Of a DNA stretch of 64,000 bases, positions 1,522 to 31,027 are shown one piece after another. The stretch's first letter is position 1, and every line of letters starts with the position of its first letter. A program made the translations under genes and the position numbers. The notes beneath the pieces were generated by a model. That model was not told where the DNA came from and ran no database searches. It was given only the letters and a program-made list of their open reading frames with translations. Origin of the DNA: Dehalococcoidia bacterium. Lineage in GTDB: Bacteria > Chloroflexota > Dehalococcoidia > UBA2979. The stretch covers positions 2,464,001 through 2,528,000 of the forward strand of contig OZ244720.1 of NCBI GenBank assembly GCA_965219085.1, given 5' to 3'.

Positions 1522-2882
1522 GCCCGCCACACAACCGCGAGGCGGCCGCGGGCGTCGACCTCGCGCTGTTCACCGACCTCTACGAGCTGACGATGCTCCA
1601 GTCGTACTGGGAGCACGACCTCCGCGCGCCTGCCACGTTCGAGCTGTTCGCGCGCACGCTCCCTGAGGGCCGCAACTACCTGCTCGCCTGCGGTCTCGAT
1701 TCCGCACTGACGTACCTCGAACGGCTCAGCTTCGGGGCCGAGGCGCTCGCGGCGCTGGAGCGGGTGGGCTTCCCCGCGGGCTTCCTCGACTGGCTCGGCG
1801 AGCTGCGGTTCACGGGCGACGTGTGGGCGATGCCGGAGGGGACGCCCGCCTTCGGCAACGAGCCGCTGCTGGTCGTCGAGGCGCCGATGCCGGAGGCGCA
1901 GGTGGTAGAGACGTACCTCATCAACCAGGTGCACTTCCAGACGCTCGTCGCCTCGAAGGGCGCGCGCGTCGTCACCGCCGCGGCAGGGCGTCCTGTCGCC
2001 GACTTCGGCGGGCGCCGTGCCCACGGGACCGACGCCGGACTGACGGCCGCACGCGCGCTCTACCTCGCCGGCATGGCGTCGACGTCGAACGTGGCGGCCG
2101 GCGCGCGCTACGGCATCCCCGTGACCGGCACCATGGCGCACAGCTACGTGCAGGCGCACGGCGAGGACTACTCGGCGTTCCGCGACTTCGTCGCCACGCA
2201 CCCCGAGACCACGCTGCTCGTCGACACGTTCGACACGCTCGAGGGGGTGCGCACGGTCGTCGCCCTCGCCGAGGAGCTCGGCGACGCGTTCCGCGTGCGC
2301 AACATCCGGCTCGACTCGGAGCCGCTCCGGGAACTGGCCGTCGAGGCGCGGCGCATCCTCGACGCGGCCGGGCTCACCTCCGTGCGCATCATCGCGAGCG
2401 GCGGCCTCGACGAACACGGCGTCGCCGACCTCGTCGCCGCGGGTGCGCCGATCGACGCCTTCGGCGTCGGCACGCGCGCGGTCACGTCCGCCGACGCGCC
2501 GACGTTCGACGCGGTCTACAAGCTCGTCGCGTACGACGGCGAGGGGCGGATCAAGCACTCGACGGGCAAGGCGACGCTCCCCGGCCGCAAGCAAGTGTTC
2601 CGCCAGCGCGCCGCCTCGGGCGTTGCGAGGCGCGACATCCTCGCCCGCGCCGACGAGCGCCACGCGGGCGAGCCGCTCCTCGTGCAGGTCATGCGCGGCG
2701 GGGAGCGCCTACCCGCGGGCGAGGACTCGCTGGAGCGTGCGCGCGAGCGGGCTGCCTCGGAGATCGCACGCCTCCCCGAGCGGCTGCGAGGACTCGATGA
2801 GGCCTCGCCGCCGTACGAGGTGGTGGTCAGCGAGGCGCTGCGCGCGGACGCGGCCCGCCTCGGGCGGGCGTGGGACGATTAG
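1518..2882 (+). CDS. pncB: Nicotinate phosphoribosyltransferase
   Basis: TDLYELTM, DFGGRRAHG, GTMAHS, LLVDTFD, IRLDS, SGGLDE, FGVGT, VYKLV; GTGA overlap with pncA. Confidence 0.93.
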   Translation: MSPPHNREAAAGVDLALFTDLYELTMLQSYWEHDLRAPATFELFARTLPEGRNYLLACGLDSALTYLERLSFGAEALAALERVGFPAGFLDWLGELRFTGDVWAMPEGTPAFGNEPLLVVEAPMPEAQVVETYLINQVHFQTLVASKGARVVTAAAGRPVADFGGRRAHGTDAGLTAARALYLAGMASTSNVAAGARYGIPVTGTMAHSYVQAHGEDYSAFRDFVATHPETTLLVDTFDTLEGVRTVVALAEELGDAFRVRNIRLDSEPLRELAVEARRILDAAGLTSVRIIASGGLDEHGVADLVAAGAPIDAFGVGTRAVTSADAPTFDAVYKLVAYDGEGRIKHSTGKATLPGRKQVFRQRAASGVARRDILARADERHAGEPLLVQVMRGGERLPAGEDSLERARERAASEIARLPERLRGLDEASPPYEVVVSEALRADAARLGRAWDD

Positions 2883-3187
2883 GCCTCGGTCTCGTCGCCT
2901 CCGCACAGTTCCACGCGCGCCTCGACGCCCGGGATGGCTCGCAGCCGTCCGTCAAGCTCGCGGAACGCCGGCGAGGCGCGCCAGGCCAGGGCGGCCTCAC
3001 GCGATTCCCACAAACTCGTCAGCAACAGCGAGCGCCGCGAGATCCATCGGTGCATCCGCACGCAGCCGGGCGCCGTGCGGCCATCGCGTTCGAGGCGGCG
3101 TGCGAGCCAGAACGCGCGCGGCATCGAGCGCATGCGCCGCAGGTGCCAGGCGGTCAGCAGCAGGACGGGGGCCGTTGGCGGTTGCAT
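2879..3187 (-). CDS. Small ABM/dimeric alpha-beta barrel-like protein
   Basis: ~102 aa from ATG 3187; APG...TSLWESREAALAWRASP pattern typical of ABM-like proteins. Confidence 0.55.
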   Translation of the reverse strand: MQPPTAPVLLLTAWHLRRMRSMPRAFWLARRLERDGRTAPGCVRMHRWISRRSLLLTSLWESREAALAWRASPAFRELDGRLRAIPGVEARVELCGGDETEA

Positions 3188-3203
3188 GCGCCGACGGTAG
3201 CAC

Positions 3204-4286
3204 TCAACCGAACTCGCCGAGGATGTGCGCGAGCAGGCGCAGCATCCGCCACCCGTCGCGCGCCGCGTGGCGCAGGTTCCCCGGCTGCGGCTCGACGTGG
3301 TCGAAGAGGTCGAGGCGATGGTAGAGGGCGGGCTCGTGCGCTGCGGCGAGCGCCTCGGACTCCACCCACGGCACGAACGCGTCGGCGCGGTCATGCAGCA
3401 GGTAGAGTGGGGCGCGCAGGCCGTCGATGTGGCGGCTCGGGCTCACCCCATCGAGGTTCGCGCGCGGCACCGGCCCGAGACCATCCAGGAACGCCTCGGC
3501 CTCCTCGATCGTCGCCCCGTCGGCCAGCGCCTCGAAGACGGCACGCCCCGGCTCATCGAGCGACGCGAGGAGGGTGTTGCGGACGGCGCGCTCGGAGATG
3601 CCCGCTGGGTCCCACGCCTCGACGCCCTCGGGGCCGCGGAAGCTCCGCGAGAGCACCGAGGCGGCGAGGCTCGCGGCGTCGTAGTACGGCCCGATCGCGA
3701 CGACGAAGGCGACGTCCCCGGCGACCTCCGGCTGCGCGGCGGCGACTATAGTCAGCGATCCGCCGGCCGACAGCCCGACGTAGCCGACTCGGTCCTCGCG
3801 CACGCGCGGGTGCGCCGCGAGCGCCTCGAACGCGGCGGTGAGGCGTCCGATCTCGACGGGCAGCACCACCGCGCCATCGAGCTCGTCGGAGTGGGAGAGC
3901 AGCACCGCGAAGCCGATGCGCGCGAGACCCTCGGTGAAGCGCACGACGCGCTCGTCGTCGGCCTCGGCGGGGTCCGCGCCGAGCACGACGATGAGGCCCG
4001 GCGCCTCCCCGTCGCCGGCGGGGAGGGTGAGCACGCCGCTACCGCCCTCGGCGTAGTCGAGCGTGTGCGTCGAGGGGTCGCCGGTGAACCACGTGATGGG
4101 GCGGCCGGGGAGGCGGAACACGACGTCTGCGGTGAATGCGGTGGCGCGCAGCCAGTCGTGCGCGGTCGGGAGCGCCGCGCCGACGGCCATGAGCGCCACG
4201 AGCATGGTGAGGAAGCGCAGGCGGCGCCGGATGGCCCACGCGTCCATGCGTCGAGGGGCGAGTCGGCGGGGGTCGAGGCGGCGCAT
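3204..4286 (-). CDS. Membrane-anchored alpha/beta hydrolase
   Basis: N-terminal TM helix, GLSAGG nucleophile elbow, HDRADAFVP, DLFDHV; start uncertain. Confidence 0.7.
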   Translation of the reverse strand: MRRLDPRRLAPRRMDAWAIRRRLRFLTMLVALMAVGAALPTAHDWLRATAFTADVVFRLPGRPITWFTGDPSTHTLDYAEGGSGVLTLPAGDGEAPGLIVVLGADPAEADDERVVRFTEGLARIGFAVLLSHSDELDGAVVLPVEIGRLTAAFEALAAHPRVREDRVGYVGLSAGGSLTIVAAAQPEVAGDVAFVVAIGPYYDAASLAASVLSRSFRGPEGVEAWDPAGISERAVRNTLLASLDEPGRAVFEALADGATIEEAEAFLDGLGPVPRANLDGVSPSRHIDGLRAPLYLLHDRADAFVPWVESEALAAAHEPALYHRLDLFDHVEPQPGNLRHAARDGWRMLRLLAHILGEFG

Positions 4287-4335
4287 GGCCAGATGGTACG
4301 TCCGGGGCCGAGGGGAGGGGGGCGTTTACCAGGGT

Positions 4336-4364
4336 AGAACGGGCGTTCGTAGACCGGCTATACT
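4336..4364 (+). promoter_or_regulatory. Promoter of TIR gene 1 with LexA-type SOS box
   Basis: AGAAC-GGGC-GTTCG at 4336-4349 lying over the expected -35 position; TATACT -10 at 4359-4364. Confidence 0.6.
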
Positions 4365-4396
4365 CGGCCACGGCGGGGTTGGTGGGGGGAACCACG

Positions 4397-4780
4397 ATGG
4401 CGCGACATGTCTTCCTCAGCTTCGCGGCTGAGGATCAGTGGCTGGCCAACGCCTTGCGCAGGCAGGCCGAGAGCAGGAGCTGCGGCCTCGAACTCCGCGA
4501 CTACGCAGCGTCGGAGCCGTTCGAGCGCGCGCGCCGGATGAACGTCGAACGGCTGATCCGCACGTGCTCCGCGACGATCTGCCTCGTCGGCAAGACGACG
4601 TGGCGCAGCGACGCGGTGAACTGGGAGATCCGCAAGAGCAGGGAGCTCGGGAAGCGGGTCATCGCCGTGCGGCTCTCGTCCGACGTCTCGCGCTACCCGG
4701 AAGCGCTGATCAAGCCGGGCGTGACGATCGTCCCTCGGGACATCGAGGAGGTCGCCCGCGCGCTCGGCGTCGCGGCGTGA
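4397..4780 (+). CDS. TIR domain protein (ThsB/MTH538/DUF1863-like), copy 1
   Basis: VFLSF..ED, CSATICLVG, T..S.AVNWEI (catalytic Glu), GKRVIAV; 127 aa from ATG 4397. Confidence 0.85.
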   Translation: MARHVFLSFAAEDQWLANALRRQAESRSCGLELRDYAASEPFERARRMNVERLIRTCSATICLVGKTTWRSDAVNWEIRKSRELGKRVIAVRLSSDVSRYPEALIKPGVTIVPRDIEEVARALGVAA

Positions 4781-4838
4781 CCGCATGAGCGACCATCACG
4801 GGCCTCATGGGGCGCTCGGCAAGCCGGGAGATGTCGCT

Positions 4839-4861
4839 AGAACGCGCGTTCGGCGTAGACT
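4839..4861 (+). promoter_or_regulatory. Promoter of TIR gene 2 with LexA-type SOS box
   Basis: AGAAC-GCGC-GTTCG at 4839-4852; TAGACT -10-like hexamer at 4856-4861. Confidence 0.55.
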
Positions 4862-4903
4862 GTACTTCGCTGGCGGGCTGGAACCGGGCAAAGGCGGTCA
4901 TCG

Positions 4904-5287
4904 ATGGCGCGAAACGTCTTCCTCAGCTTCGCGATGGAGGATCAGCGGCTTGCCAACGCGTTTCGGGTGCAGGCGACGAACAGCCGCTCCGACCTGGAGT
5001 TCCGTGACTACTCCGTGAAAGAGGCGTTCGAGCACGCGTGGAAGACGAACGTTGAGCGTCTGATCCGGATGTGCTCCGCGACGGTCTGTCTTGTCGGTGA
5101 GTCCACGTGGCGCAGTGATGCGGTCGACTGGGAGATACGCAAGAGCAATCAGCTGGGGAAGCGGCTGATTGCGGTGCGGCTGGGACCCGACGTTCGACTT
5201 CCAACGGCCCTGGGCGAGTTGGGCGTCACAGTCGTTCCATGGGATATCGAGGCGATCATGCGGGAACTCGGTGGCGTGGCCGCGTGA
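4904..5287 (+). CDS. TIR domain protein (ThsB/MTH538/DUF1863-like), copy 2
   Basis: VFLSF..ED, RDYSVKE.F..AWK, SATVCLVG, S.AVDWEI; ~66% identical to copy 1 by manual alignment. Confidence 0.88.
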   Translation: MARNVFLSFAMEDQRLANAFRVQATNSRSDLEFRDYSVKEAFEHAWKTNVERLIRMCSATVCLVGESTWRSDAVDWEIRKSNQLGKRLIAVRLGPDVRLPTALGELGVTVVPWDIEAIMRELGGVAA

Positions 5288-5817
5288 CCACGGATGGGGC
5301 AGCCCTCGAGCGCCGATTGTTCCCCGCGGGTCCGCCACCCGCGGACGATGGAACCGCGCGGTCCTTGCTCGACCAGTACCGGCTGCTGGTGGAGTCGTCC
5401 GAACGGGTGGTGGCTCGGCGTCAGACCGCCAACACGTTCTTCCTCTCCATCAACTCGGGTCTCTTGATCGTCGCGGGCGTCCTGCTTCGCGAAGGCGACT
5501 TGGTCTCCACACTGGGCGGAGGTGTGAGCGCGGGTGTGAGCTTGATGGGGTTCTTCATCTGCTTCGTGTGGTGGCGCATGGTGACGTCCTTCCGCCAGTT
5601 GAACACGGCGAAGTTCAGGATCATTCACCTGCTGGAGGGTCATCTCCCGGCTGCCGTCTTTGCGGCCGAGTGGGATGCGCTCGGCGAAGGACACGACCCG
5701 TCGCTCTATCGCCCCTTCACGCGCCTCGAGACACAGATCCCCATGGGACTCATGGCCCTCTATGGAAGCGCGGCTGTGGCCGGGGTCGTGTTGGCGGCAC
5801 TCAGCGGGATTCGCTGA
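5284..5817 (+). CDS. Small integral membrane protein (2-3 TM), resembling the TIR-associated RipA/octameric membrane protein family; putative effector
   Basis: GTG start overlapping the TIR2 stop (GTGA); LDQYRLLVESSERVVARRQTANTFFLSIN, two TM helices, SFRQLNTAKF.IIH.LE..LP, EW..LGEG, FTRLE..IP and a C-terminal TM. Confidence 0.75.
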   Translation: MTTDGAALERRLFPAGPPPADDGTARSLLDQYRLLVESSERVVARRQTANTFFLSINSGLLIVAGVLLREGDLVSTLGGGVSAGVSLMGFFICFVWWRMVTSFRQLNTAKFRIIHLLEGHLPAAVFAAEWDALGEGHDPSLYRPFTRLETQIPMGLMALYGSAAVAGVVLAALSGIR

Positions 5818-5831
5818 CCCGCCGTTCGCAG

Positions 5832-6263
5832 CTACCCGCCCAGCATCGCGTCCAGCGACAGCGGCCCCGCGCCGCCGAGGATGAGCGCGACGAGGGCCGC
5901 GACCATGAGGATGTCGAGTTCGTAGCCCTGCGCGTTCTCGTTGCCCGCGAACGGCAGGTGCAGCTTCGCCGCGTTCGTGTACGTCGCCACCGCCATGCTC
6001 ACGGCGAGCGGGATCGCGACCCACGACGTGAACAGGCCCGCGAGCAGCGCGAGACCGCCGATGACCTCGAGCGCCACGACGAGGGGACCGAGCAGCCGCG
6101 GGATTGGATAGCCGAGTTCACCGAGCCACGAGCTGAAGCCGCCGACGCCGCGCCGGAACTTGCCGTAGCCGGCGTGCACAAGGATGACGCCGAGGGCGAC
6201 GCGTAGCGGCAGCATCGCCCATCCGGGCTCGCAGGCGCAGAGGGGCTCGGTCAGCACGTCCAC
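5832..6263 (-). CDS. DoxX family membrane protein
   Basis: LRVALGVILVHAGYGK, EVIGGLALLAGLFT, GYEL, GAGPLSLD. Confidence 0.88.
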   Translation of the reverse strand: MDVLTEPLCACEPGWAMLPLRVALGVILVHAGYGKFRRGVGGFSSWLGELGYPIPRLLGPLVVALEVIGGLALLAGLFTSWVAIPLAVSMAVATYTNAAKLHLPFAGNENAQGYELDILMVAALVALILGGAGPLSLDAMLGG

Positions 6264-7264: not shown

Positions 7265-8022
7265 ACCGCCTCTTCCTCGAGCGTTTGCTCGATAGTCACT
7301 GGATAATAGTCGCCCGTGGCCAGTTGCTCCACGAGGTCCTCGAGGGTGGCTATAGGCTGGGCGAACGCCGTCAGGCAGCGCCCGATCGCGCTGACATAGT
7401 GGGCGTCGCTGCCGCCGACCTGACCGAGCCCGTGCTGCTCGGCGAACTCCGCGCCGATGCCGTTCTCGTGGTCCGAACTGCCGCCGTTGAGCGCCTCGAC
7501 TGCTTCGACGAACTCAAGGCTGTGCCCGTTCGCCACGTGCTCCGCGATGCCGATGCTCGGCCGGCCGGCGTGCGCGGCCACGGCGAAGCCGCCGGTCTCG
7601 CGGGCGATGCGGAACACGTCGGCCGGCGGCAGCCGCGTCGAGGAGAGGTCGAAGTGGCGCGCGAAGTCGTCGGTGATGCCGTAGACCAACACGTGCCCGA
7701 CGGTCGTCTCGACCTCCGCGCCGCGCAGCACGACTGCCTCGTACTGCTCGGAGATCGCCGCGTAGTCGACGTCCGGGTCGAACTGGCGGTGTTCGGTCAG
7801 CACGAAGCCGTCGATGTGGTAGCCGCGCCTGCGGCGGGAGGCGATCCACTTGAGATAGCCCTCGACGGTCCCGCCGGCGTCGTCCGACGCGTCGGTCGAG
7901 TGGGAGTGGAGATCGACGTAGAAACGGCGTCCGGCGATGAGATCGTCCTTCCGGCGGGCAGGCGCGGGCTCGCCATTCTCGGCAGCGCGCGGCGCGGGCG
8001 TCAATCGGACGCCGCCGCTCAC
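7261..8022 (-). CDS. PHP-domain metallohydrolase
   Basis: DLHSHS, LTEH, GAEVETTVGH, AAH, GGSDAH; GTG start overlapping the menC stop. Confidence 0.85.
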   Translation of the reverse strand: MSGGVRLTPAPRAAENGEPAPARRKDDLIAGRRFYVDLHSHSTDASDDAGGTVEGYLKWIASRRRRGYHIDGFVLTEHRQFDPDVDYAAISEQYEAVVLRGAEVETTVGHVLVYGITDDFARHFDLSSTRLPPADVFRIARETGGFAVAAHAGRPSIGIAEHVANGHSLEFVEAVEALNGGSSDHENGIGAEFAEQHGLGQVGGSDAHYVSAIGRCLTAFAQPIATLEDLVEQLATGDYYPVTIEQTLEEEAV

Positions 8023-9122
8023 CCCTCGATGGCGATCCAGGGCCCCGTCGCCGCCGCGTCGAGCGCGGCTGCGTCGAGCGCGACGCCGAGACCGGGGTGA
8101 GCGGGCACGGGCAACACACCCCCGATCGGTCGCGGCGGCTCGGCGACGATGTCGGCGGCGAGGTGGTCTGCAGTCCCCAGGCCGTGCGCCGCATCGGGCA
8201 GCGCGTCGAAGGCCGGGATTGCAGCGGCGAGGTGGAGCGCCGCTGCCACGCCGATGCCGGCGTCGAACGTCGTCGTGACGATGCACGGGACGCCTCGCTC
8301 CGCGGCCTCGCGGGCGAGGGCGAGCGCGGGCCGGATGCCACCGAGCCGCATCGGCTTGAGCACCAGCGCCCCGACCGCGCCTGCGGCGAGCAGGCGGCGG
8401 CCATCCTCGATCGAGGTGACGCCCTCGTCCGCCGCGATGCGAGTCGAGGACTCCCGGTGGATCCGCGCCAGCGCCTTGTCGGCGCCGACGGGGACCGGCT
8501 GCTCGACGAGTTCGACATCGCAGGCGGCGAGCCGCGCGAGCGTGGCGGCGGCGGTCGGCTCATCCCAGCCGCCGTTGGCGTCCAGGCGCAGGCGAGCCTC
8601 GGGCAGCGCTTCGCGGACGGCCTGCACGCGGCGCACGTCGTCGTCGGGGGGCCTGGCGGCGACCTTGAGCTTGAACGTGCGGAAGCCCGCCGCCCACGCC
8701 TCGCGCACCTGCGCGAGCGCCAGCTCCGGCGGCCCGTCACTGATGACCGCGTTGGCCGCCACGGTCGCGCGAGGGTGCTCCGTGAGCAGCGCTGCCACGG
8801 ATAGGCCGCGCTGCTTCCCTTCCAGGTCGAGCTGCGCCACGTCGAGCGCGCAGCGCAGCGCGGCGACGCCGAGGCCGCCGAGGTCGTCCGGGATGCCGCC
8901 GAGGAGGTCGCGCGCGTGCACCTCAAGCAGCCGCAGCACGTCGTCCGCGTCGCCCTCGCCGAACTCGGGGAGCGGCGAGGCTTCGCCGACCCCTCGCAGG
9001 CCCGAGCCGTCGATGAGTTCGACGACGACGCCGGCGCGGTACGCGATCGCAGCGCGTGCGGTCTGCATCGGCGCGCGCATCGGGAGGCGGAACGGGCGGT
9101 AGCGGACGCCGACGAGGGTCAC
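8019..9122 (-). CDS. menC: o-succinylbenzoate synthase (enolase superfamily)
   Basis: GEASPLPEF, FKLKV, RLDANGGW, VEQP, AADE, VLKP, HGLGT; in men cluster; start approximate. Confidence 0.88.
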   Translation of the reverse strand: MTLVGVRYRPFRLPMRAPMQTARAAIAYRAGVVVELIDGSGLRGVGEASPLPEFGEGDADDVLRLLEVHARDLLGGIPDDLGGLGVAALRCALDVAQLDLEGKQRGLSVAALLTEHPRATVAANAVISDGPPELALAQVREAWAAGFRTFKLKVAARPPDDDVRRVQAVREALPEARLRLDANGGWDEPTAAATLARLAACDVELVEQPVPVGADKALARIHRESSTRIAADEGVTSIEDGRRLLAAGAVGALVLKPMRLGGIRPALALAREAAERGVPCIVTTTFDAGIGVAAALHLAAAIPAFDALPDAAHGLGTADHLAADIVAEPPRPIGGVLPVPAHPGLGVALDAAALDAAATGPWIAIEG

Positions 9123-9136
9123 GACGACCGTCCCGC

Positions 9137-10051
9137 TTAGACGGCGAGGCCGACGGCGAGCAGCACGCCGAGCACGAGGTGCAGGCGCGCCGTCGCGCGC
9201 AGCGCCGCGTTGAGCGTCGGGCCGTCGGTGCTGGTCATGACCGCGCGCACGGGCGAAACGGCGAGGGGGATGCTCAGCCACGCGAGCAGCGTCCACGCGC
9301 CGAAGCCGTCGATTGGCGCGAGCGCGGCGGCGGTGAGGTACGCGGCCGCCACGGTCGCGACGAAGAGCCAGCGCGCGGGCTGGCGGCCGACGATCACGGC
9401 GAGCGTGCGCTTGCCCGCGGCCTCGTCGGTCTCGATGTCGCGGATGTTGTTGACCATGAGGATCGCCGTGACCGTGCAGCCGACCGGCACCGCGGCGGCA
9501 ACGGCCGCGGCCGTGATCGCCTCGGCCTGCACGTAGTACGTGCCGACCACCGCGACGAGGCCGAAGAAGATGAACACGAAGACGTCGCCGAGGCCGTGGT
9601 AGCCGAACGGCCACGGTCCACCCGTGTAGGCGAGCGCGGCCAGCATCGAGGCGACACCCGCGGCGACCACCGGCCAGCCGGCCACCGCGACGAGGTAGAG
9701 CCCCGCCAGCGTCGCGATGCCGAACGCGACCACCAGGCCGCCGATGACCTGTCGTTCGCTGAGGATCCCGAGCTGCGTGACGCGCGGCGGGCCGATGCGG
9801 TCGGCGGTGTCCGCCCCTCGGCGGAAGTCCGAGACGTCGTTGGCGAGGTTCGCACCGACCTGGATGGCGAGCGCGCCGAGCATGGCGGCGGCCGCCGGGC
9901 CGGCCTGAGCCTCGCCCGCGTGGAGGGCCACGGCCGTGCCGACCACGACGGGCGTGGCGGCGGCGGTGAGCGTCGGCGGGCGGGCGGCCAGCACCCACGC
10001 GCCGAGCCGCGAGGGGCGGCCGTCGGCGTCCGGCTGCGAGGCCTCCTGCAT
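9137..10051 (-). CDS. menA: 1,4-dihydroxy-2-naphthoate polyprenyltransferase
   Basis: AARPPTL, NLANDVSDFRRGAD, YTGGP.PFGY.GLGD, NNIRDIETD..AGKRTLAV. Confidence 0.95.
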   Translation of the reverse strand: MQEASQPDADGRPSRLGAWVLAARPPTLTAAATPVVVGTAVALHAGEAQAGPAAAAMLGALAIQVGANLANDVSDFRRGADTADRIGPPRVTQLGILSERQVIGGLVVAFGIATLAGLYLVAVAGWPVVAAGVASMLAALAYTGGPWPFGYHGLGDVFVFIFFGLVAVVGTYYVQAEAITAAAVAAAVPVGCTVTAILMVNNIRDIETDEAAGKRTLAVIVGRQPARWLFVATVAAAYLTAAALAPIDGFGAWTLLAWLSIPLAVSPVRAVMTSTDGPTLNAALRATARLHLVLGVLLAVGLAV

Positions 10052-10074
10052 CGCGTCGTCCTCGATGGGCGCGC

Positions 10075-10911
10075 TCAGGGCAGGCGCGGGAACTGCGAGA
10101 AGTCCGGTGAGCGCTTCTCGAGGAAGGCGTTGCGGCCCTCCTTGCCCTCGTCGGTGCGGTAGAACAGCGAGGTCGCGTCGCCGGCGAGTTGCTGGAGGCC
10201 GGCGATGCCGTCGGTGTCCGCGAGGAACCCCATCTTCATGAAGCGGAGCGCGGTCGGGCTATGGACGAGGATCTCGCGCGCCCACTGCACGCCCTCGGCC
10301 TCGAGGTCGTCGGCGGGGACGACGGCGTTGACGAGCCCCATCTCCATGGCCTCCTGCGCGCTGTACTGGCGGCACAGGTACCAGATCTCGCGCGCCTTCT
10401 TGTGGCCGACGATGCGCGCGAGCTGCGCCGCGCCGAGGCCCGCGTCGAACGAGCCGACGCGCGGGCCGACCTGGCCCAGGCGTGCCGTGTCCGAAGCGAT
10501 GGAGAGGTCGCAGACGACGTGCAGGACGTGCCCGCCGCCGATCGCGTAGCCGTTGACGAGGGCGATCACCGGCTTCGGCATCGAGCGAATGTAGCGCTGC
10601 AGCGGCAGCACGTTGAGCGTGGGGACGCCGTCATCGCCGATGTAGCCGCCCTCGCCGCGCACGCGCTGGTCGCCGCCGGTGCAGAACGCGCGCTGCCCCG
10701 AGCCGGTCAGCAGCACGACGCCGATGTCGGCGTCCATGTGCGCGTCCTCGAACGCCCACTGCATCTGGTCGAGGGTCTGCGGGCGGAAGGCGTTGAGCAC
10801 CTCGGGCCGGTTCATCGTGATCTTCGCGATGCCCTCGGCCTTGTGGTAGAAGATGTCGCTGTGGTCGCCCACCTGGGTCCACTCGATTGCTTCACTCGCC
10901 GTCGTCGTCAT
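10075..10911 (-). CDS. menB: 1,4-dihydroxy-2-naphthoyl-CoA synthase
   Basis: [49 protein letters not shown]. Confidence 0.96.
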
Positions 10912-10937
10912 GGTCGTCCCCAATCCGTCGTCGTCTG

Positions 10938-11780
10938 TCAGGCGTCGGCGCCGACGCGTGCACCCGGATAGGCGCGCCGCAGGAACTCGAGCAGCGGGCG
11001 TTGGAACGCCTCGGGACGCTCGAGGTGCGCGGCGTGCCCGGCGCCCTCGATCGCATGCATCGTAGCGTCCGGCATCGTGCGCGCCATATCCCGCGCGATT
11101 TCCGCGTACTTCGTGTCGAGCGCGCCCGCGATCAACAGCGTGGGGACGGTGATGCCGACGATGCGATCCAGCAGCGGATCCTGCGCGCCCGCGCCCATGC
11201 CGCGCAGCGAGTTCGCGAGCCCCGTCGCCGTGTTCGCGGTGCGCGTCGCGCGGATCGCCGCGCGCGTCCCGGCCTGGAGCGAAAGCTGCGAGGCGAACAG
11301 CGGGACGCGCTCCCACGTGTCGACGAACGCCTCCACGCCGTCGCGCTCGATGCGCTCGGCCATCGCCTCGTCGTTGCGGACGCGTGCCGCGCGCTCATCG
11401 TCGCCGGCGATGCCGGGCGAGGCGCCTTCGAGGATGAGCGCCTCGACGGCCTCGGGGTGGTCCGTGACGAGCTGGAGCGCCGTGCGACCGCCCAGCGAGT
11501 AGCCGAGCCAGGCGGCGCGCTCGTGCCCGAGCCGTCGCACCAGCGCGACGAGGTCGGCGGCGGCGCGCGGCATCCGGTAGCGCTCGACGTCTTCGGGGGC
11601 GTCGGATCGGCCGTGGCCGATGAGGTCGGGCGCGATCACGGTGTAGTCGGCGGCGAGGGCGGCCGTGAGGCCGGCCCAGGTGTCGGCGGAGCCGGTGAAG
11701 CCGTGCACCAGCACGAGCGGCGGGCCCGATCCGGCGACCTCGGCGTGCAGTTCCAGCCCGTCGACGTCGAAGCGCGGCAT
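10938..11780 (-). CDS. menH: SHCHC synthase (alpha/beta hydrolase)
   Basis: [35 protein letters not shown]; TGATG overlap with menD. Confidence 0.9.
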
Positions 11781-13693
11781 CAGCCCTGCCGGGCGCTGGC
11801 CGGGGCCGGCGAGGTGGATTCCGCCGCGGCGTCGCGCAGCGCCGAGTCGACGCGCGCCCACGCCTCGCGGTGCAGCGCCACATTGCGCTCGCGGTCCGTG
11901 CGCAACTCGACGACGGTCAGGCCGGGCATGCTCGCGGCGCCTCGCAGTGCCGGCAGCCACTCGGTCGGCTCCGGCCGTACGAGGCGCCCGCCGAACGTGC
12001 CGATGGCGCCGGAGAAGTCGAGCCCATGCGGCGTGCCGAACCACTCCTCGAACTCCGCGGAGGCGAGATCGGCCTGCGGGAGGAAGTGGAAGATGCCGCC
12101 GCCGTCGTTGTTGACCAGCGCCACGAGGAGCGAGAGGTGGTGGCGGCGCAACGCCCACAGCCCGTTGAGGTCGTGCAGGAAGGAGAGGTCGCCGACCAGC
12201 GCGGCAACGGGACCCATGCCCGCCGCCGCGGCCCCGACGGCCGTCGACACGACGCCGTCGATACCCGACGCGCCGCGTGTGCCGAGATAGCGCAGCGCGC
12301 GCCCCTGGGACGGCAAGAAGGAGTCGGCGTCGCGGATGATCATCGAGTTGCCGAGGATGACGGTGGTGACGTCCCGGATCGCGCTCGCGAGCGCGACGGG
12401 CGCGTAGCCCTCGAACGGCTCGGACTGCTCGCGCAGCATCTCGTCGAGGGCCGCCCGCGCGGTGTGACTCGCGTTCGTCCAGAACTGCAGCCAGCCCGGG
12501 TCGGCGTGGTACGGCGCGCCGACCCGCGCGGGATCGTTGGCCGCGCCCGTGAACGCCGAGGGTCGGCGCGCGCCCAGCGCGTCGACCGCGGCGTCGCAGA
12601 GCGCGTGCGGCTCGGCGCGCAGCATCAGCGAGGCGACGGCGTCGGGGTCGCGCCAGCCGCCGGCCACGTCGACAACGAGTTGCGGCACGCCCCGCAGCGA
12701 GGCGAGGAACTGGCCGAGCACCTTCGAGGTCGGCGCGGCGCCGAAGCGCACGACCACCTCGGGCGCGGCCTGCGCGGCGAAGCGGGGCGAGCGCAGCAGC
12801 GCGTCGTACGTGTCGATCACGCGCACCATGCTGTGGCGGCCGGCGCGCACGCCGGAGAGCGGGTCGGCGAGGATCGGCCAGTCGAGCGTGCGCGCGAGGT
12901 TGTCGATCGCCTCGGCCGGCAGCCCCTCGGAATCGGGCCCGCAGACGATGATCCCGCGGCGGCCGAGGACCAGCTCGACGAGGCGCGCCGCGGCGGGGCG
13001 CGCGTGTTCGTGGGGGCGGCCGACCTTCGGGGTCAGCACCGGCGCGTACGGCCGCCTCGGCGACGGCCGCGCGTGTGGCGTGATCGGGTTGGGCGCCACG
13101 TCCAGATGCGCGGTCGCGGCGCCCTCGTCGAGCGCCTGCTGCCAACCCGCCTCGATCAGCGGCTCGCGGAGCGGCACGTTGACATGCACCGGCCCGGCGG
13201 GCGCCTCGGCGGCCGTCACCACGGCGCGCGCGGCGATGCCGCGAGCGTAGCCTTCGAGCGCGGTGCTGCCGTCGGTGGTCGGCAGCTCGACGGCCCAGCG
13301 CGCGTGGCTGCCGAAGAGCCCCGTCTGGTCGATGGTCTGGTTCGCGCCGATGTCGCGCAGCTCGGGCGGCCGGTCGGCGGTGAGCGCGACGAGGGGGATC
13401 CGCGACAGTGACGCCTCGACGATGGACGGCAGGAGGTTCGCGGCTGCCGTGCCGGACGAGGTCACGATCGCGACCGGCTCGTTGAGCTGCCGCGCGAGGC
13501 CGAGCGCGAAGTAGCCCGCGGCACGCTCGTCGAGGTGCAGCCACGTCCGGATCGAGGCGTGGCGATCGAGCGCCAGCGTGAGCGGCGTCGAGCGCGAGCC
13601 GGGCGCGATCACGGCGTGGTGCACGCCGCCGCGCGCGAGCTGCGCGATGAACGCGCCGATGTAGCGGTAGAGCGCGCTGGTGTCGCTGGTCAC
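11780..13693 (-). CDS. menD: SEPHCHC synthase
   Basis: PGSRSTPL, DERAAGYFALG, SGTAAAN, TADRP, GASGIDG, GDLSFLHD, NNDGGGIF. Confidence 0.95.
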   Translation of the reverse strand: MTSDTSALYRYIGAFIAQLARGGVHHAVIAPGSRSTPLTLALDRHASIRTWLHLDERAAGYFALGLARQLNEPVAIVTSSGTAAANLLPSIVEASLSRIPLVALTADRPPELRDIGANQTIDQTGLFGSHARWAVELPTTDGSTALEGYARGIAARAVVTAAEAPAGPVHVNVPLREPLIEAGWQQALDEGAATAHLDVAPNPITPHARPSPRRPYAPVLTPKVGRPHEHARPAAARLVELVLGRRGIIVCGPDSEGLPAEAIDNLARTLDWPILADPLSGVRAGRHSMVRVIDTYDALLRSPRFAAQAAPEVVVRFGAAPTSKVLGQFLASLRGVPQLVVDVAGGWRDPDAVASLMLRAEPHALCDAAVDALGARRPSAFTGAANDPARVGAPYHADPGWLQFWTNASHTARAALDEMLREQSEPFEGYAPVALASAIRDVTTVILGNSMIIRDADSFLPSQGRALRYLGTRGASGIDGVVSTAVGAAAAGMGPVAALVGDLSFLHDLNGLWALRRHHLSLLVALVNNDGGGIFHFLPQADLASAEFEEWFGTPHGLDFSGAIGTFGGRLVRPEPTEWLPALRGAASMPGLTVVELRTDRERNVALHREAWARVDSALRDAAAESTSPAPASARQG

Positions 13694-15054
13694 AGCTGGC
13701 CTCCGCCGAGGGCGGTGGTGAGCGGGCGGAACTTCAGCTCGATCTCGGCCAGCTCGGCCTCCGGGTCTGAGTCGCCCATGATGCCCGCGCCTGCGAACAG
13801 CCACGCCCTCGCACCGCGCACGAGCGCCGACCGCAGCCCGACCGCGAACTCGCCGTCGCCGGCCGCGTCGATCCACCCGACGGGTCCGGCGTACCAGCCG
13901 CGGTCGAAGCGCTCGTAGCGGCCGATGACGGAGCGAGCGGTGGGGGTCGGCCAGCCGCAGACGGCGGGCGTCGGATGCAACCGCTCGACCACGTCGAGCA
14001 CGTCGATACCCGGCCGCGCGTCGGCGGTCACCTCGGTTGCGAGGTGCTGGATGTTGCTCAGGCGGCGCAGGACGGGCTGGTTGGGGGCGTGCAGGCCACT
14101 GCCGAGGTCGGCGAGGCCTTCACGCAGCGCGCGCACGACGATGGTGTGCTCGATGCGGTCCTTCACGCTGTTCAGGAGCGCGTCGCCCAGCTCCTCGTCC
14201 TCCTCGGGCGTCTGGCCGCGGCGGATGGAGCCCGCGAGGCCGAGCGTGGTGATGCGCCCGTCGCGGAGCCCGGCGAGCTGCTCGGGGCTGGCCCCCAGGA
14301 AGATGCCGTCGCCGGCGCGGTAGCTGAAGAGGTGGCAGTTCGAGTAGCCCTCGCGCAGGCGGGCGAGCGCGACACCCGGCTCGATGGGGCGCTCCGCCTC
14401 GAGCTCGCGCGTCGCGGCGAGCACGGCCTTTTCGTAGGCGCCCGATCGGATGTCGGTCGCGACGCTGGCGACGCCGCTCAGCAGGGCGGGGCGGTTCACG
14501 TCCCAGAGCACCCGCAGCGAGGTCGTGTCGGCGTCCGGATCGGCGCGGTCGGCCGGATCGCGTGCCGCGAGGTCGGCGAGCACGCTGTAGAGCTCCTCGC
14601 GGTCGATGTCGGGGGCGATCACGACGCCGCAGACGCCGCCCTCGCGGACGAACAGCAGGCGAGGCAGGAGCAGCCAGCCCGCGTCGAAGCCCGTCCACGG
14701 CGCGCCGCTCGGCGCTGCGTCGTCGAACGCGAACCCGCCGAGCAGCCGCGGTCGCAGCGCCTGCCGATTCGAGCCGTCCCACGCGCCGAGAAGCTGCCGC
14801 GCGGGCTCGCGGAGCGCGGTCGCGCCACGCCCCGCGGGCGCCATGATGCGCTCCGCGACGCCGATCCCGGCGAGCACGAAGTCCTGGTCGGGGCGCTCGT
14901 AGTACGCGCTCACCATCGACGCCGTCGCGCCGCTGAGCAGCACGCGCGGGTCGAACCGCTCCGGCAGCTCGACGACGTGGAAGCGGCCCATCGAGGCTGT
15001 CTCGCGCTCGAATCCCGGCCGAGGTGCGCCGTGGGGATCGCGTGGCCGGGTCAT
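13690..15054 (-). CDS. menF: Isochorismate synthase
   Basis: KAVLA, GASPEQL, LAGSIRRG, KDRIEH, IQHLAT, LHPTPAVCG, RGWYAGPVG, FAGAGI; start 15054 or 14991. Confidence 0.9.
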   Translation of the reverse strand: MTRPRDPHGAPRPGFERETASMGRFHVVELPERFDPRVLLSGATASMVSAYYERPDQDFVLAGIGVAERIMAPAGRGATALREPARQLLGAWDGSNRQALRPRLLGGFAFDDAAPSGAPWTGFDAGWLLLPRLLFVREGGVCGVVIAPDIDREELYSVLADLAARDPADRADPDADTTSLRVLWDVNRPALLSGVASVATDIRSGAYEKAVLAATRELEAERPIEPGVALARLREGYSNCHLFSYRAGDGIFLGASPEQLAGLRDGRITTLGLAGSIRRGQTPEEDEELGDALLNSVKDRIEHTIVVRALREGLADLGSGLHAPNQPVLRRLSNIQHLATEVTADARPGIDVLDVVERLHPTPAVCGWPTPTARSVIGRYERFDRGWYAGPVGWIDAAGDGEFAVGLRSALVRGARAWLFAGAGIMGDSDPEAELAEIELKFRPLTTALGGGQL

Positions 15055-28949: not shown

Positions 28950-29424
28950 GTCCGGTGCTCCTCTCGTCCGTGGTGATGGGGTCGGCCTGATTATCGCTCG
29001 TGGTCAGTGCCTGCTCGAGCGTCTTCCAGGCGAGCGATGCACACTTTACCCGCACGGGGAACTTGCGCACCCCGGCCAGCGCCTCGATGTCGCCGAACGC
29101 CTCGTCGAGGGGCTCGCCGTCGACCATCATGCGCTGAAACGCCTCGACGCCGGCCAGGGCCTCCTCGGCGGGTCGTCCCTTCACATACCCGGTCATCATC
29201 GAACTCGACGCCTGCGAGATCGAGCAGCCCGAGCCCTCGAACGCCACATCGGCGACGTTGCCGTCGTCGTCGAGCGCGACGTCGAGCGTGATCTGGTCGC
29301 CGCAGAGCGGGTTCGCGCCGTCCGCGCTCGCCGTCGGCGCGTCGAGGCGGCCGCGGTTGCGCGGGCTGCGGTAGTGGTCGAGCAGGATCTCGCGATAGAG
29401 GTCGTCGAGCGCCGAGGTGGTCAT
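28942..29424 (-). CDS. sufU: SUF-system NifU-family protein
   Basis: LYREILLDHY, NPLCGD, GCSISQAS, RVKCA.LAW. Confidence 0.93.
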   Translation of the reverse strand: MTTSALDDLYREILLDHYRSPRNRGRLDAPTASADGANPLCGDQITLDVALDDDGNVADVAFEGSGCSISQASSSMMTGYVKGRPAEEALAGVEAFQRMMVDGEPLDEAFGDIEALAGVRKFPVRVKCASLAWKTLEQALTTSDNQADPITTDERSTGHD

Positions 29425-30713
29425 CGCTGGCCCGCCGTCGTGCTCGGGACGACGCCGAAGTAGCTCGCGGTCTCGCGCACCGCGGCCTCGAGGATGTCGA
29501 CCTCCTCGCGGGTGTTGTAGATGTAGAACGACGCGCGCGCCGTCGCGGGAATGCCGAGGCGCTGCATGACGGGCTGCGCGCAGTGGTGCCCGGCGCGGAT
29601 CGCCACACCGCGGCTGTCCAGCACCTGCCCCACGTCGTGGGGGTGCACGCCTTCGAGGCCGAACGAGACGACGCCGCCGCGGAGGGCAGCGTCGAGCGGG
29701 CCGTAGAGCGTCACGCCGGGCACGTCGACGAGCTTGCCGAGTGCGTAGTCGGTCAGCTCGCGCTCGTGGGCGCGCACGCGCTCCATGCCGAGGGCCTGCA
29801 GGTAGTCGATGGCGATGCCGAAGGCGACGACGCCGCCGACGTTGGGGGTGCCCGCCTCGAACTTGTGAGGGACCTCGTTCCATGTCGACTCGGTGAGCGA
29901 GACAGTGGCGATCATGTCGCCGCCGCCGAGGAAGGGCCGCATCGCTTCGAGCAGCTCACCGCGCGCCCAGAGCACGCCGACGCCCGTCGGGCCGAGCATC
30001 TTGTGGGCGGAGAACGCGAGGAAGTCCGCGCCCAACTCGCCGACATCGACCGGCAGGTGCGGCGCGGCCTGTGCGGCGTCGACGAGTACGCGCGCGCCTC
30101 GCGCGTGCGCCAGATCGGCCAGCTCACCGACGGGGACGATCGAGCCGAGCGCGTTCGACATCAGCGTGATCGCGAGCAGCCGCGTGCGCGGGTTGATGAC
30201 CTCGCGCGCGACATCGAGGTCGAGCGTGCCGTCGTCGCGCATCGGGATGTGGCGCAGCACGATGCCGCGCTCGTCGCGCAGCATCTGCCACGGGACGATG
30301 TTCGAGTGGTGCTCGATCTCGGTGATGACGACCTCGTCGCCGGGCTCGAGGAACGCCCGCGCCCAGGCGTGCGCGACGAGGTTGATCGACTCGGTCGTGT
30401 TGCGGGTGAAGACGATCTCGGACGCCGACGGGGCGCCGATGAAGCTGCGGACCTTCTCGCGCACCCCCTCGTACAGGTCGGTCGCCTCGACGGAGAGGGT
30501 GTGGACGCCGCGATGGATGTTGGCGTTGCTGTCGCGGTAGAAGCGCGTGATCTCCGCCATCACCTGCACGGGCTTTTGCGAAGTCGCGGCGTTGTCGAGG
30601 TACACAAGCGGGTGGCCGTTGACCTCGCGCTTGAGGATCGGGAAGTCGCGGCGGATGCGCTCGACGTCGAAGCCGTACGCGGAGCTGCCGACGCCGTCGA
30701 ACACGCTGGTCAC
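29421..30713 (-). CDS. sufS: Cysteine desulfurase
   Basis: YLDNAATSQKP, EHHSNIVPW, SAHKMLGPTG, EAGTP, RAGHHCA. Confidence 0.95.
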   Translation of the reverse strand: MTSVFDGVGSSAYGFDVERIRRDFPILKREVNGHPLVYLDNAATSQKPVQVMAEITRFYRDSNANIHRGVHTLSVEATDLYEGVREKVRSFIGAPSASEIVFTRNTTESINLVAHAWARAFLEPGDEVVITEIEHHSNIVPWQMLRDERGIVLRHIPMRDDGTLDLDVAREVINPRTRLLAITLMSNALGSIVPVGELADLAHARGARVLVDAAQAAPHLPVDVGELGADFLAFSAHKMLGPTGVGVLWARGELLEAMRPFLGGGDMIATVSLTESTWNEVPHKFEAGTPNVGGVVAFGIAIDYLQALGMERVRAHERELTDYALGKLVDVPGVTLYGPLDAALRGGVVSFGLEGVHPHDVGQVLDSRGVAIRAGHHCAQPVMQRLGIPATARASFYIYNTREEVDILEAAVRETASYFGVVPSTTAGQR

Positions 30714-31027
30714 GACGCCTCGCAATCGACGTACACGTCGTCGCCGTCGACGGTGACGGTGTAGGCGCTGACGCCGCGCACGGCGGGCAGGGTCAGCGCG
30801 CGGCCGGTGCGCGCGTCGAAGGCCGCGCCGTGGCGTGGGCAGATGATGCGGCCGCGGAGCAGCCGCCCCTCGCCGAGCGGGCCGTCGTCGTGGGTACACA
30901 CGTTGTCGATGGCGTACAGGTCGCCCTCGATGTTGCTCACCGCGAGCGAGCGGCCCTCGGCACACATCACCACGCGTATCTCGCCCTCGGGGATGTCGGA
31001 GACGGAGGCGACGCGCTCAGGCGGCAC
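30710..31027 (-). CDS. Rieske [2Fe-2S] ferredoxin
   Basis: CTH ... CPRH Rieske ligands. Confidence 0.92.
   Translation of the reverse strand: MPPERVASVSDIPEGEIRVVMCAEGRSLAVSNIEGDLYAIDNVCTHDDGPLGEGRLLRGRIICPRHGAAFDARTGRALTLPAVRGVSAYTVTVDGDDVYVDCEAS

Follow-up and report, generated by a model that had tools for sequence, protein, structure and literature searches.

A TIR gene pair coupled to a membrane protein gene

We analysed a 64-kb stretch of a Dehalococcoidia bacterium genome (contig OZ244720.1, hereafter the window), in which an earlier note, made from the letters alone, had singled out a cassette of two TIR genes and a small membrane protein gene as a Thoeris-like immune system. The three genes are co-directional and span positions 4397-5817 of the window:

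4397..4780, + strand: TIR1, a 127-aa minimal ThsB-type TIR protein (P0001), paralogue of TIR2 (PF08937, PADLOC ThsB)
4904..5287, + strand: TIR2, a 127-aa minimal ThsB-type TIR protein (P0002), the copy coupled to the membrane gene (PF08937)
5284..5817, + strand: 8xMP-family membrane protein (P0003), 177 aa, the proposed effector (PF24838)

The open reading frames (ORFs) are as the earlier note had drawn them, two 127-aa TIR proteins and a 177-aa membrane protein coupled to the second through a GTGA sequence: the GTG start of the P0003 gene overlaps the TGA stop of TIR2 by 4 bases, and the two TIR genes are separated by a spacer of 123 bp. An alternative ATG for the P0003 gene exists upstream, at 5239; the GTG start was preferred because homologues, also 177 aa long, start at the equivalent residue. 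The earlier note had also described TIR2 and the membrane gene as less rich in G+C than their surroundings. Their overall G+C contents are 0.625 and 0.65, respectively, and at third codon positions (GC3) the difference holds, with 0.78 and 0.81 vs 0.89-0.96 in eight flanking genes, TIR1 being host-like (0.92). The closest named relatives of the cassette and of its flanking genes are all Chloroflexota/Dehalococcoidia genome bins. In two of these relatives the same genomic slot, in synteny, holds the cassette, with two TIR genes in L001 and one in L002, which indicates that the cassette has been vertically inherited for some time and that the TIR duplication is younger than the insertion.

The absence of a classical effector, also claimed from the letters, held when the 11 flanking genes were scanned with Pfam and 49 ORFs of the window with PADLOC: the former lacked SIR2, SLOG, Macro and caspase domains, and the latter included no defence gene near the cassette.

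Both TIR proteins keep the catalytic glutamate

TIR1 and TIR2, which are 65% identical, match the family PF08937 (ThsB_TIR) with E values of 3.8e-14 and 1.9e-14 (53.3 and 54.3 bits, compared with a curated cut-off of 21.2). Both match the ThsB models of PADLOC, TIR1 at E 4.7e-11; both also match the PADLOC model PDC-M50B (E 1e-09 and 4.4e-09), the ThsB models scoring better. NCBIfam gave no match for P0001, P0002 or P0003 (none at E<=1 for P0003).

When the two TIR proteins of the window were aligned with 33 TIRs from related loci (n=35), residues F6, S8, G65 and E77 were invariant in 35/35 sequences. E77 is the Glu of the 'WE' motif to which the earlier note had given the catalytic role, and it is kept in both window proteins. 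It aligns with the Glu of the '...RYEI...' motif in Bacillus cereus ThsB (6lhy/9b7d), counted as residue 85, which we take to be the catalytic residue. With this Glu intact, both TIR proteins are predicted to be enzymes that consume nicotinamide adenine dinucleotide (NAD). A profile built from the alignment finds four solved chains, 8fz9 (E 2.5e-18), 6lhy/9b7d (E 5e-09) and 8wcf; searched as a single sequence, TIR2 has 8fz9 (BcTir) as its closest solved structure (E 6.7e-07).

The membrane protein is a full-length member of PF24838

P0003 matches PF24838 ('8xMP, octameric membrane protein family', hereafter 8xMP) at E 4.6e-34, with 117.6 bits against a cut-off of 30, and covers profile positions 1-133 of 136; it is thus a full-length member. 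All of its 71 close homologues belong to PF24838, as do 35/35 aligned relatives, and the family as a whole counts 4158 representatives at E<=1e-3. In the ESM Atlas, 76-93% of the members of its nearest clusters carry PF24838, under the automatic names 'RipA family octameric membrane protein' or '8xMP domain-containing'; clusters without PF24838 (best score 0.81; PycTM in 11% of one cluster at 0.76) are leads only.

Hydropathy placed three hydrophobic segments at residues ~50-68, 77-98 and 152-175. The AlphaFold2 model, built from 35 sequences with a predicted local distance difference test score (pLDDT) of 85.7, is all-helical (helices 22-69, 76-118, 125-132 and 145-176), and the three segments fall inside confidently predicted helices, at the upper end of the two to three membrane helices foreseen. 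The alignment has 18 invariant columns, including Y32, R45, R46, Q47, N50, K110, E118, E129 and W130, which lie mostly before segment 1 and between segments 2 and 3. These stretches are predicted to be cytosolic, and the conserved-looking cytosolic segment noticed earlier is thereby made out residue by residue. The N-terminal tail is otherwise variable, with an invariant Leu12 and a nearly invariant Phe13. The octameric state of P0003 is suggested by the Pfam family name.

Among known families and structures P0003 stands apart. Compared as a sequence with solved structures it gave nothing at E<=10. PADLOC v2 (2023) held no match for P0003 and no significant one for 51 further 8xMP-family proteins; PHROG held none for P0003. 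PF10028 (DUF2270) was not matched at E<=10 by P0003 and 34 relatives, and Pfam revealed no SIR2, SLOG, Macro, caspase, DUF2270, DUF6650, SLATT or CMP-hydrolase domain in P0003 or its relatives. Structural matches to pore-forming toxins (AhlB, SmhB) had TM-scores of 0.2-0.28 and were treated as noise; PADLOC matches of 8xMP proteins to PycTM and 2TM, at E ~0.005, are at chance level. No searchable text that we found names 8xMP, PF24838, DUF7701, PF24792 or PDC-M50 in a relevant way, and our literature search found no structural paper for Francisella RipA or its octamer.

TIR and 8xMP genes are paired across phyla and on plasmids

We scanned one genome per species with a single peptide pattern taken from the 8xMP alignment and obtained 57 loci, from Chloroflexota, Acidobacteriota, Binatia, Gemmatimonadota-like bins, Rhodothermales, Streptomyces, Bacteroidales, Alpha-, Gamma- and Deltaproteobacteria-type bins and others. 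At 45 of these loci, the 8xMP gene is immediately preceded by a TIR gene of the same strand. In 44 of them this TIR gene is a ThsB-like relative of the window TIRs that ends at or just inside the 8xMP start; the 4-base overlap seen in the window recurs in L001-L005. The 45th (L051, 4002-6432, from a Solirubrobacterales bin) encodes a 625-aa TIR_2 and Kelch-repeat protein whose gene overlaps the 8xMP gene by 17 bases; here the effector is combined with another TIR architecture, one that carries a sensor. After all-against-all clustering of the neighbouring ORFs only TIR and 8xMP were conserved, a third gene being shared only within small groups of related genomes.

A tblastn check of plasmids matched 35 records, nine of which were examined. 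All nine matches are PF24838 proteins, and six have a PF08937 gene directly upstream; these pairs come from Polaromonas, Synechococcus elongatus, Novosphingobium, Haematospirillum and the haloarchaea Natronosalvus and Halobaculum, with TIR/8xMP overlaps or gaps of 1-2 bases. The TIR-8xMP pair occurs in unrelated contexts in different phyla, and the pairing of the two genes is more than chance. The neighbourhood survey that the earlier note had called for therefore did find TIR linkage among the homologues (45/57 genome and 6/9 plasmid loci).

The number of TIR genes per locus varies. Extra copies were found in L001, L004, L012, L029, L034 and L044, as expected for several sensors on one effector; the parallel with multiple thsB copies in Thoeris, drawn from the two copies of the window, extends to this larger set. 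The Dehalococcoidia locus L005 has two different TIR-8xMP pairs (2734-3608 and 8641-10284), 2.4 kb apart, the second, divergent one with the same 4-base overlap, and a CBASS-type cyclase-E2 fusion gene 2.6 kb downstream.

The two proteins also occur as a single chain. A scan of 32 longer 8xMP proteins revealed seven natural fusions with an N-terminal TIR domain, in which the Glu is kept and the Leu-Phe motif of the 8xMP tail is retained in the linker.

Defence genes occur beside the pair at some loci

In 24 of the 57 loci we compared 135 neighbouring ORFs with PADLOC, keeping those of at least 130 aa (and a few shorter ones immediately beside the pair) within ~4 kb. Non-TIR defence genes (E<=1e-6) were found in seven of the sampled loci: BREX (BrxL/PglZ), a CBASS cyclase-E2, IetA/IetS, a type IIG restriction-modification enzyme, PDC-S01, an OLD/PtuA-like ATPase, and type I methyltransferase fragments with mad1. 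One further sampled locus had nothing but a subtilase match. According to the record annotations, the plasmid copies adjoin genes for a type I restriction (R) subunit, PIN, HEPN and Fic proteins, an integrase and toxin-antitoxin systems.

Each TIR gene has its own promoter box

Upstream of each TIR gene of the window lies a GAAC-N4-GTTC palindrome next to a -10-like hexamer:

4337..4348, + strand: palindrome GAACGGGCGTTC, ending 49 nt before the TIR1 start, with a TATACT -10-like hexamer at 4359-4364
4840..4851, + strand: palindrome GAACGCGCGTTC, ending 53 nt before the TIR2 start, with a TGTACT hexamer at 4861-4866

Both boxes start 60-64 nt upstream of the TIR start codons and end 10 nt before the hexamer. 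They are the only two perfect matches in the window, where 0.58 were expected, and 11/100 shuffles reach two; the two are not independent, because the promoter was duplicated together with the TIR gene. The 123-bp spacer, in which the second box lies, thus supplies TIR2 with a separate copy of the promoter/operator element. The combination of box and hexamer is conserved before both TIR genes of L001 and the TIR gene of L002, and with one mismatch in L003. A perfect box precedes 3/46 TIR genes, all in L001 and L002, and is absent upstream of the TIR genes of other phyla. CTGT-N8-ACAG, GTTC-N7-GTTC and GAAC-N7-GAAC were not found upstream of any of 52 TIR genes. A sigma-70 promoter and terminator scan of 4150-6000 returned nothing; the -10-like hexamers came from the alignment.

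We take GAAC-N4-GTTC to be a putative LexA (Cheo-type) box, a motif also reported for Dehalococcoides. The two boxes are candidate LexA-type operators overlapping the promoters, and their conservation in two related genomes suggests that the cassette, if immune, may be under SOS (LexA) control in this Chloroflexota lineage.

Comparison with known TIR systems

The accessible text of a December 2025 preprint (10.64898/2025.12.03.692087) describes 29 TIR-effector configurations, some with unnamed membrane proteins, and gives II, V, VII and X as the Thoeris types with membrane effectors, listing further untested ones. As described there, type V (ThsB with ThsF, a DUF2270/PF10028 protein) defends in experiments, its TIR making 3' cyclic ADP-ribose (3'cADPR) upon which the effector is toxic, and the model of ThsF is a homo-oligomeric ring whose cytosolic pockets carry positive charge. 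Small multi-helix membrane proteins encoded beside signalling enzymes are presented in the same text as effectors of described systems, and TIRs as NAD-depleting effectors in CBASS, Pycsar and prokaryotic Argonaute (pAgo) systems, which may hold for some unverified TIR operons.

The closest parallel with the window cassette is this type V, as far as the text goes: in both, a TIR gene is joined to a small membrane protein with three predicted membrane helices. However, P0003 and its 34 relatives are PF24838 proteins that do not match PF10028, a separation made by family search only. With type I Thoeris the cassette shares the TIR family PF08937, the Glu equivalent to that of ThsB and the multiple ThsB copies per effector, but the window has no SIR2/SLOG protein in the place of ThsA and the partner is a membrane protein. 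In types II (TIR with a Macro-transmembrane effector) and VII (TIR with SLATT), as the accessible text has them, a TIR enzyme is likewise paired with an effector that disrupts the membrane; P0003 differs from these in having neither a Macro nor a SLATT domain. BcTir (PDB 8fz9), the closest solved TIR, is according to the available part of its report a 138-aa TIR protein encoded in a two-gene B. cereus anti-phage operon (bioRxiv 10.1101/2023.05.26.542521), so that TIRs this small do occur in defence systems. It is similar to the window TIRs in being a minimal TIR in a two-gene unit, but its partner, BcTpr, is a glycosidase-TPR protein and not a membrane protein. Of the PADLOC candidate PDC-M50, component B is matched by the window TIRs, and the 8xMP partner is not a component in PADLOC v2. 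The PF24838 annotation makes no mention of TIR or immunity, and the 'RipA family' label stems from automatic cluster names.

The text of 10.64898/2025.12.03.692087 delimits Thoeris by an operon that joins a TIR gene to a conserved effector gene of another kind, and this is what we found for TIR-8xMP; a SIR2 and SLOG ThsA beside ThsB (type I) or a DUF2270 effector (type V) is not. The earlier note had called the cassette non-canonical and possibly an uncharacterised type. The first half of this has to be revised, TIR and small membrane protein being a known kind of system in the preprint's account; the effector family may be the new part. Even this combination may already be listed, as the families of ThsJ, ThsK, ThsL and 18 untested effectors are given only in the preprint's figures and tables.

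Interpretation of the cassette and alternative explanations

On balance we lean, with limited assurance, towards the cassette being a Thoeris-class anti-phage module, by analogy with described systems and above all with type V Thoeris as it appears in the accessible text of 10.64898/2025.12.03.692087: a mobile, conserved TIR-8xMP unit to which an extra TIR paralogue has been added here. The two minimal TIR proteins would be both infection sensors and NAD-consuming enzymes that, once activated, would produce an ADP-ribose-derived signal. The signal would bind the conserved, positively charged cytosolic face (R45, R46, Q47, N50, K110) of a homo-oligomeric ring formed by P0003, and this three-helix ring would then compromise the membrane and abort the infection. 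Two TIR paralogues on one effector could widen the sensing range and, each TIR gene having its own promoter overlapped by a putative LexA box in this lineage, expression may rise with DNA damage. A complex of TIR2 and 8xMP, predicted with two alignments, scored 0.00 vs a mark of 0.32, without controls, and speaks neither for nor against binding.

Several observations weigh against this anti-phage module. In the window the cassette does not lie in a defence island; its 11 flanking genes are metabolic, and it sits among housekeeping genes, syntenic in two related genomes. The TIR proteins, at 127 aa, have no obvious separate sensor domain. Our literature search found no experiment on any TIR-8xMP pair. 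Of the structural and defence-model checks that the earlier note had proposed, those on the TIR proteins led to ThsB models, but P0003 had neither a PADLOC match nor a significant structural neighbour, a Foldseek search of its monomer model against PDB and viral models (BFVD) giving nothing below E 0.3. In favour of the oligomeric pore effector of that note, P0003 belongs to a family that Pfam names octameric, and its gene is the conserved companion of TIR genes across phyla, while pore formation by P0003 would follow from this name and from analogy. The 57 loci are a sample biased to one subfamily of the 4158 PF24838 representatives, and 12 of them have no detectable TIR gene (L035, L040-L043, L046, L048-L050, L053, L056 and L057, with Streptomyces in L040-L043 and L056 and Bacteroidales in L048-L050 and L053). 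The same is true of three of the nine plasmid loci, and the family thus has TIR-independent uses. Nine of the 32 longer 8xMP proteins have DUF7701 (PF24792) in place of TIR. Finally, a diffusible signal explains covalent TIR-8xMP fusions no better than physical coupling does.

This last point leads to an explanation without a messenger, in which 8xMP is bound, at its cytosolic face or N-terminal tail, by the TIR protein itself, and a change of the latter upon infection opens or assembles the ring. The seven single-chain fusions keep alive this direct-contact alternative, already raised in the earlier note, and it would also account for the tight translational coupling (4-base overlaps in the window, in L001-L005 and in the second L005 pair, overlaps or 1-2 base gaps on plasmids) and for the Leu-Phe motif of the 8xMP tail, which is kept in the fusion linkers and might serve for docking. 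The catalytic Glu is, however, invariant, as it would not need to be if the TIR had a purely structural role. Several TIR subfamilies (minimal ThsB-like, 'FISFDY' type, TIR_2-Kelch) pair with 8xMP, which a shared small-molecule signal accounts for more readily than a shared interface would; in L012, L044 and L034, extra TIR genes are encoded downstream or on the other strand. We therefore regard contact gating as improbable. The roles could also be reversed, 8xMP being a membrane sensor or scaffold (for instance of envelope perturbation at phage entry or lysis) and the TIRs, clustered by the ring, depleting NAD+. Such a ring would gather several TIR domains, which the fusions would tether permanently, and 8xMP is associated with other cytosolic domains too (DUF7701, and a leucine-rich-repeat protein beside a truncated copy); bacterial TIRs do deplete NAD in CBASS, Pycsar and pAgo systems according to the accessible text of 10.64898/2025.12.03.692087. 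That text also places small multi-helix membrane proteins beside signalling enzymes on the effector side (10.64898/2025.12.03.692087), the best matches of the TIRs are to ThsB, that is signalling, models, and multiple divergent TIRs per 8xMP suit sensors more than redundant effectors, so that we give this reversal a low probability.

It is more doubtful still that the cassette has nothing to do with immunity and works in housekeeping or stress, a nucleotide-processing enzyme of TIR type and a ring-forming membrane protein together serving envelope or NAD physiology. Its place in a core region, syntenic in L001 and L002, would suit such a role, as would the isochorismatase-family and nicotinate phosphoribosyltransferase genes ~1.5 kb away, the many 8xMP genes without a TIR neighbour and the automatic cluster names that link PF24838 to a 'RipA family octameric membrane protein'. 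The NAD-salvage neighbours are, however, not conserved beyond close relatives, the pair is scattered over phyla and plasmids beside restriction, BREX, CBASS and toxin-antitoxin genes, and the TIR copy number varies.

A wider proposal goes beyond the anti-phage module of the window, and we hold it as a tentative one that is rather unlikely to be right in full: PF24838 would be an unrecognised, widespread family of TIR-immunity effectors in bacteria and haloarchaea, a three-helix ring gated by a TIR-made nucleotide, existing in two-gene and single-chain sense-signal-kill forms, with swappable heads such as DUF7701 and, in one Chloroflexota lineage, SOS wiring. TIR signalling is common to bacterial, plant and animal immunity, and to our knowledge every TIR effector family added so far has brought a new signal chemistry with it. 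With its thousands of representatives, in bacteria as well as archaea, such an effector family would widen the range over which TIR immunity is known, and the proposal would open a first way to the function of a Pfam family of which no more than a predicted oligomeric state is known. Should the 'RipA' label be correct, a family of ligand-gated rings would also take in a membrane protein of an intracellular pathogen that has long lacked an explanation. The natural fusions would offer a compact system in which to ask whether TIR products act in cis, and the plasmid-borne pairs of cultured organisms (Polaromonas, Synechococcus elongatus, Novosphingobium) make the idea directly testable.

Other 8xMP loci and neighbouring genes

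The DUF7701-8xMP proteins are P0085, P0098, P0103, P0108, P0120, P0129, P0136, P0170 and P0189. DUF7701 is a domain of ~90 aa, small and helical, that precedes the 8xMP part and was folded within the model of a fusion protein (pLDDT 80.5); it had no structural neighbour, and its sole PHROG match was phrog_26560, a phage protein family of unknown function. In the haloarchaeal plasmid pairs (L064, 1663-3031; L065, 1253-3076) the TIR proteins are longer, 253 and 277 aa, with the TIR domain in the C-terminal half, and the 8xMP proteins are also longer, with uncharacterised N-terminal extensions.

At loci without TIR, the ORFs up- or downstream of the 8xMP gene (L035, L046, L006, L040) were not TIR by profile comparison. 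In Colwellia (L035) a 103-aa ORF, 5672-5983, overlaps the 8xMP start and faintly resembles TIR over part of its length, without conservation at the Glu position; the hhalign probability of 0.4% is not significant. The 8xMP genes of Streptomyces (L040-L043, L066) have no TIR neighbour; upstream of them lie genes with DUF2530-like or DUF4328 membrane domains, or YunG, and they precede a conserved ORF of ~180 aa without a family match, an arrangement that may be a TIR-independent use of the 8xMP family. Two copies are decayed: in a Streptomyces genome (L056, 4937-8442) the 8xMP gene is split over two reading frames, and in L057 (5887-6210) ~40 matching residues are left, beside a leucine-rich-repeat protein.

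In the window, the cassette is flanked by a divergent alpha/beta-hydrolase-like gene (3204-4286, - strand) and a convergent DoxX gene (5832-6263, - strand). Farther upstream, ~1.5 kb from the TIR genes, are an isochorismatase-family gene, possibly for a nicotinamidase (940-1521), and a nicotinate phosphoribosyltransferase gene (1518-2882); a NAD-salvage link was set aside, these neighbours being common to the close relatives L001 and L002 only and their presence probably a coincidence. The sole PADLOC match besides the cassette is a cysteine desulfurase-like gene 24 kb away (29421-30965; DndA and SspA models, E ~1e-52). It probably encodes a housekeeping IscS/NifS-type enzyme, because no other Dnd or Ssp component was detected among the 49 ORFs. 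A run of genes on the minus strand (8019-13876) resembles a menaquinone biosynthesis cluster, its names coming from Pfam domains only: a MenC-like enolase-superfamily gene, a UbiA-family prenyltransferase gene, a MenB-like enoyl-CoA hydratase-family gene and a large downstream ORF.

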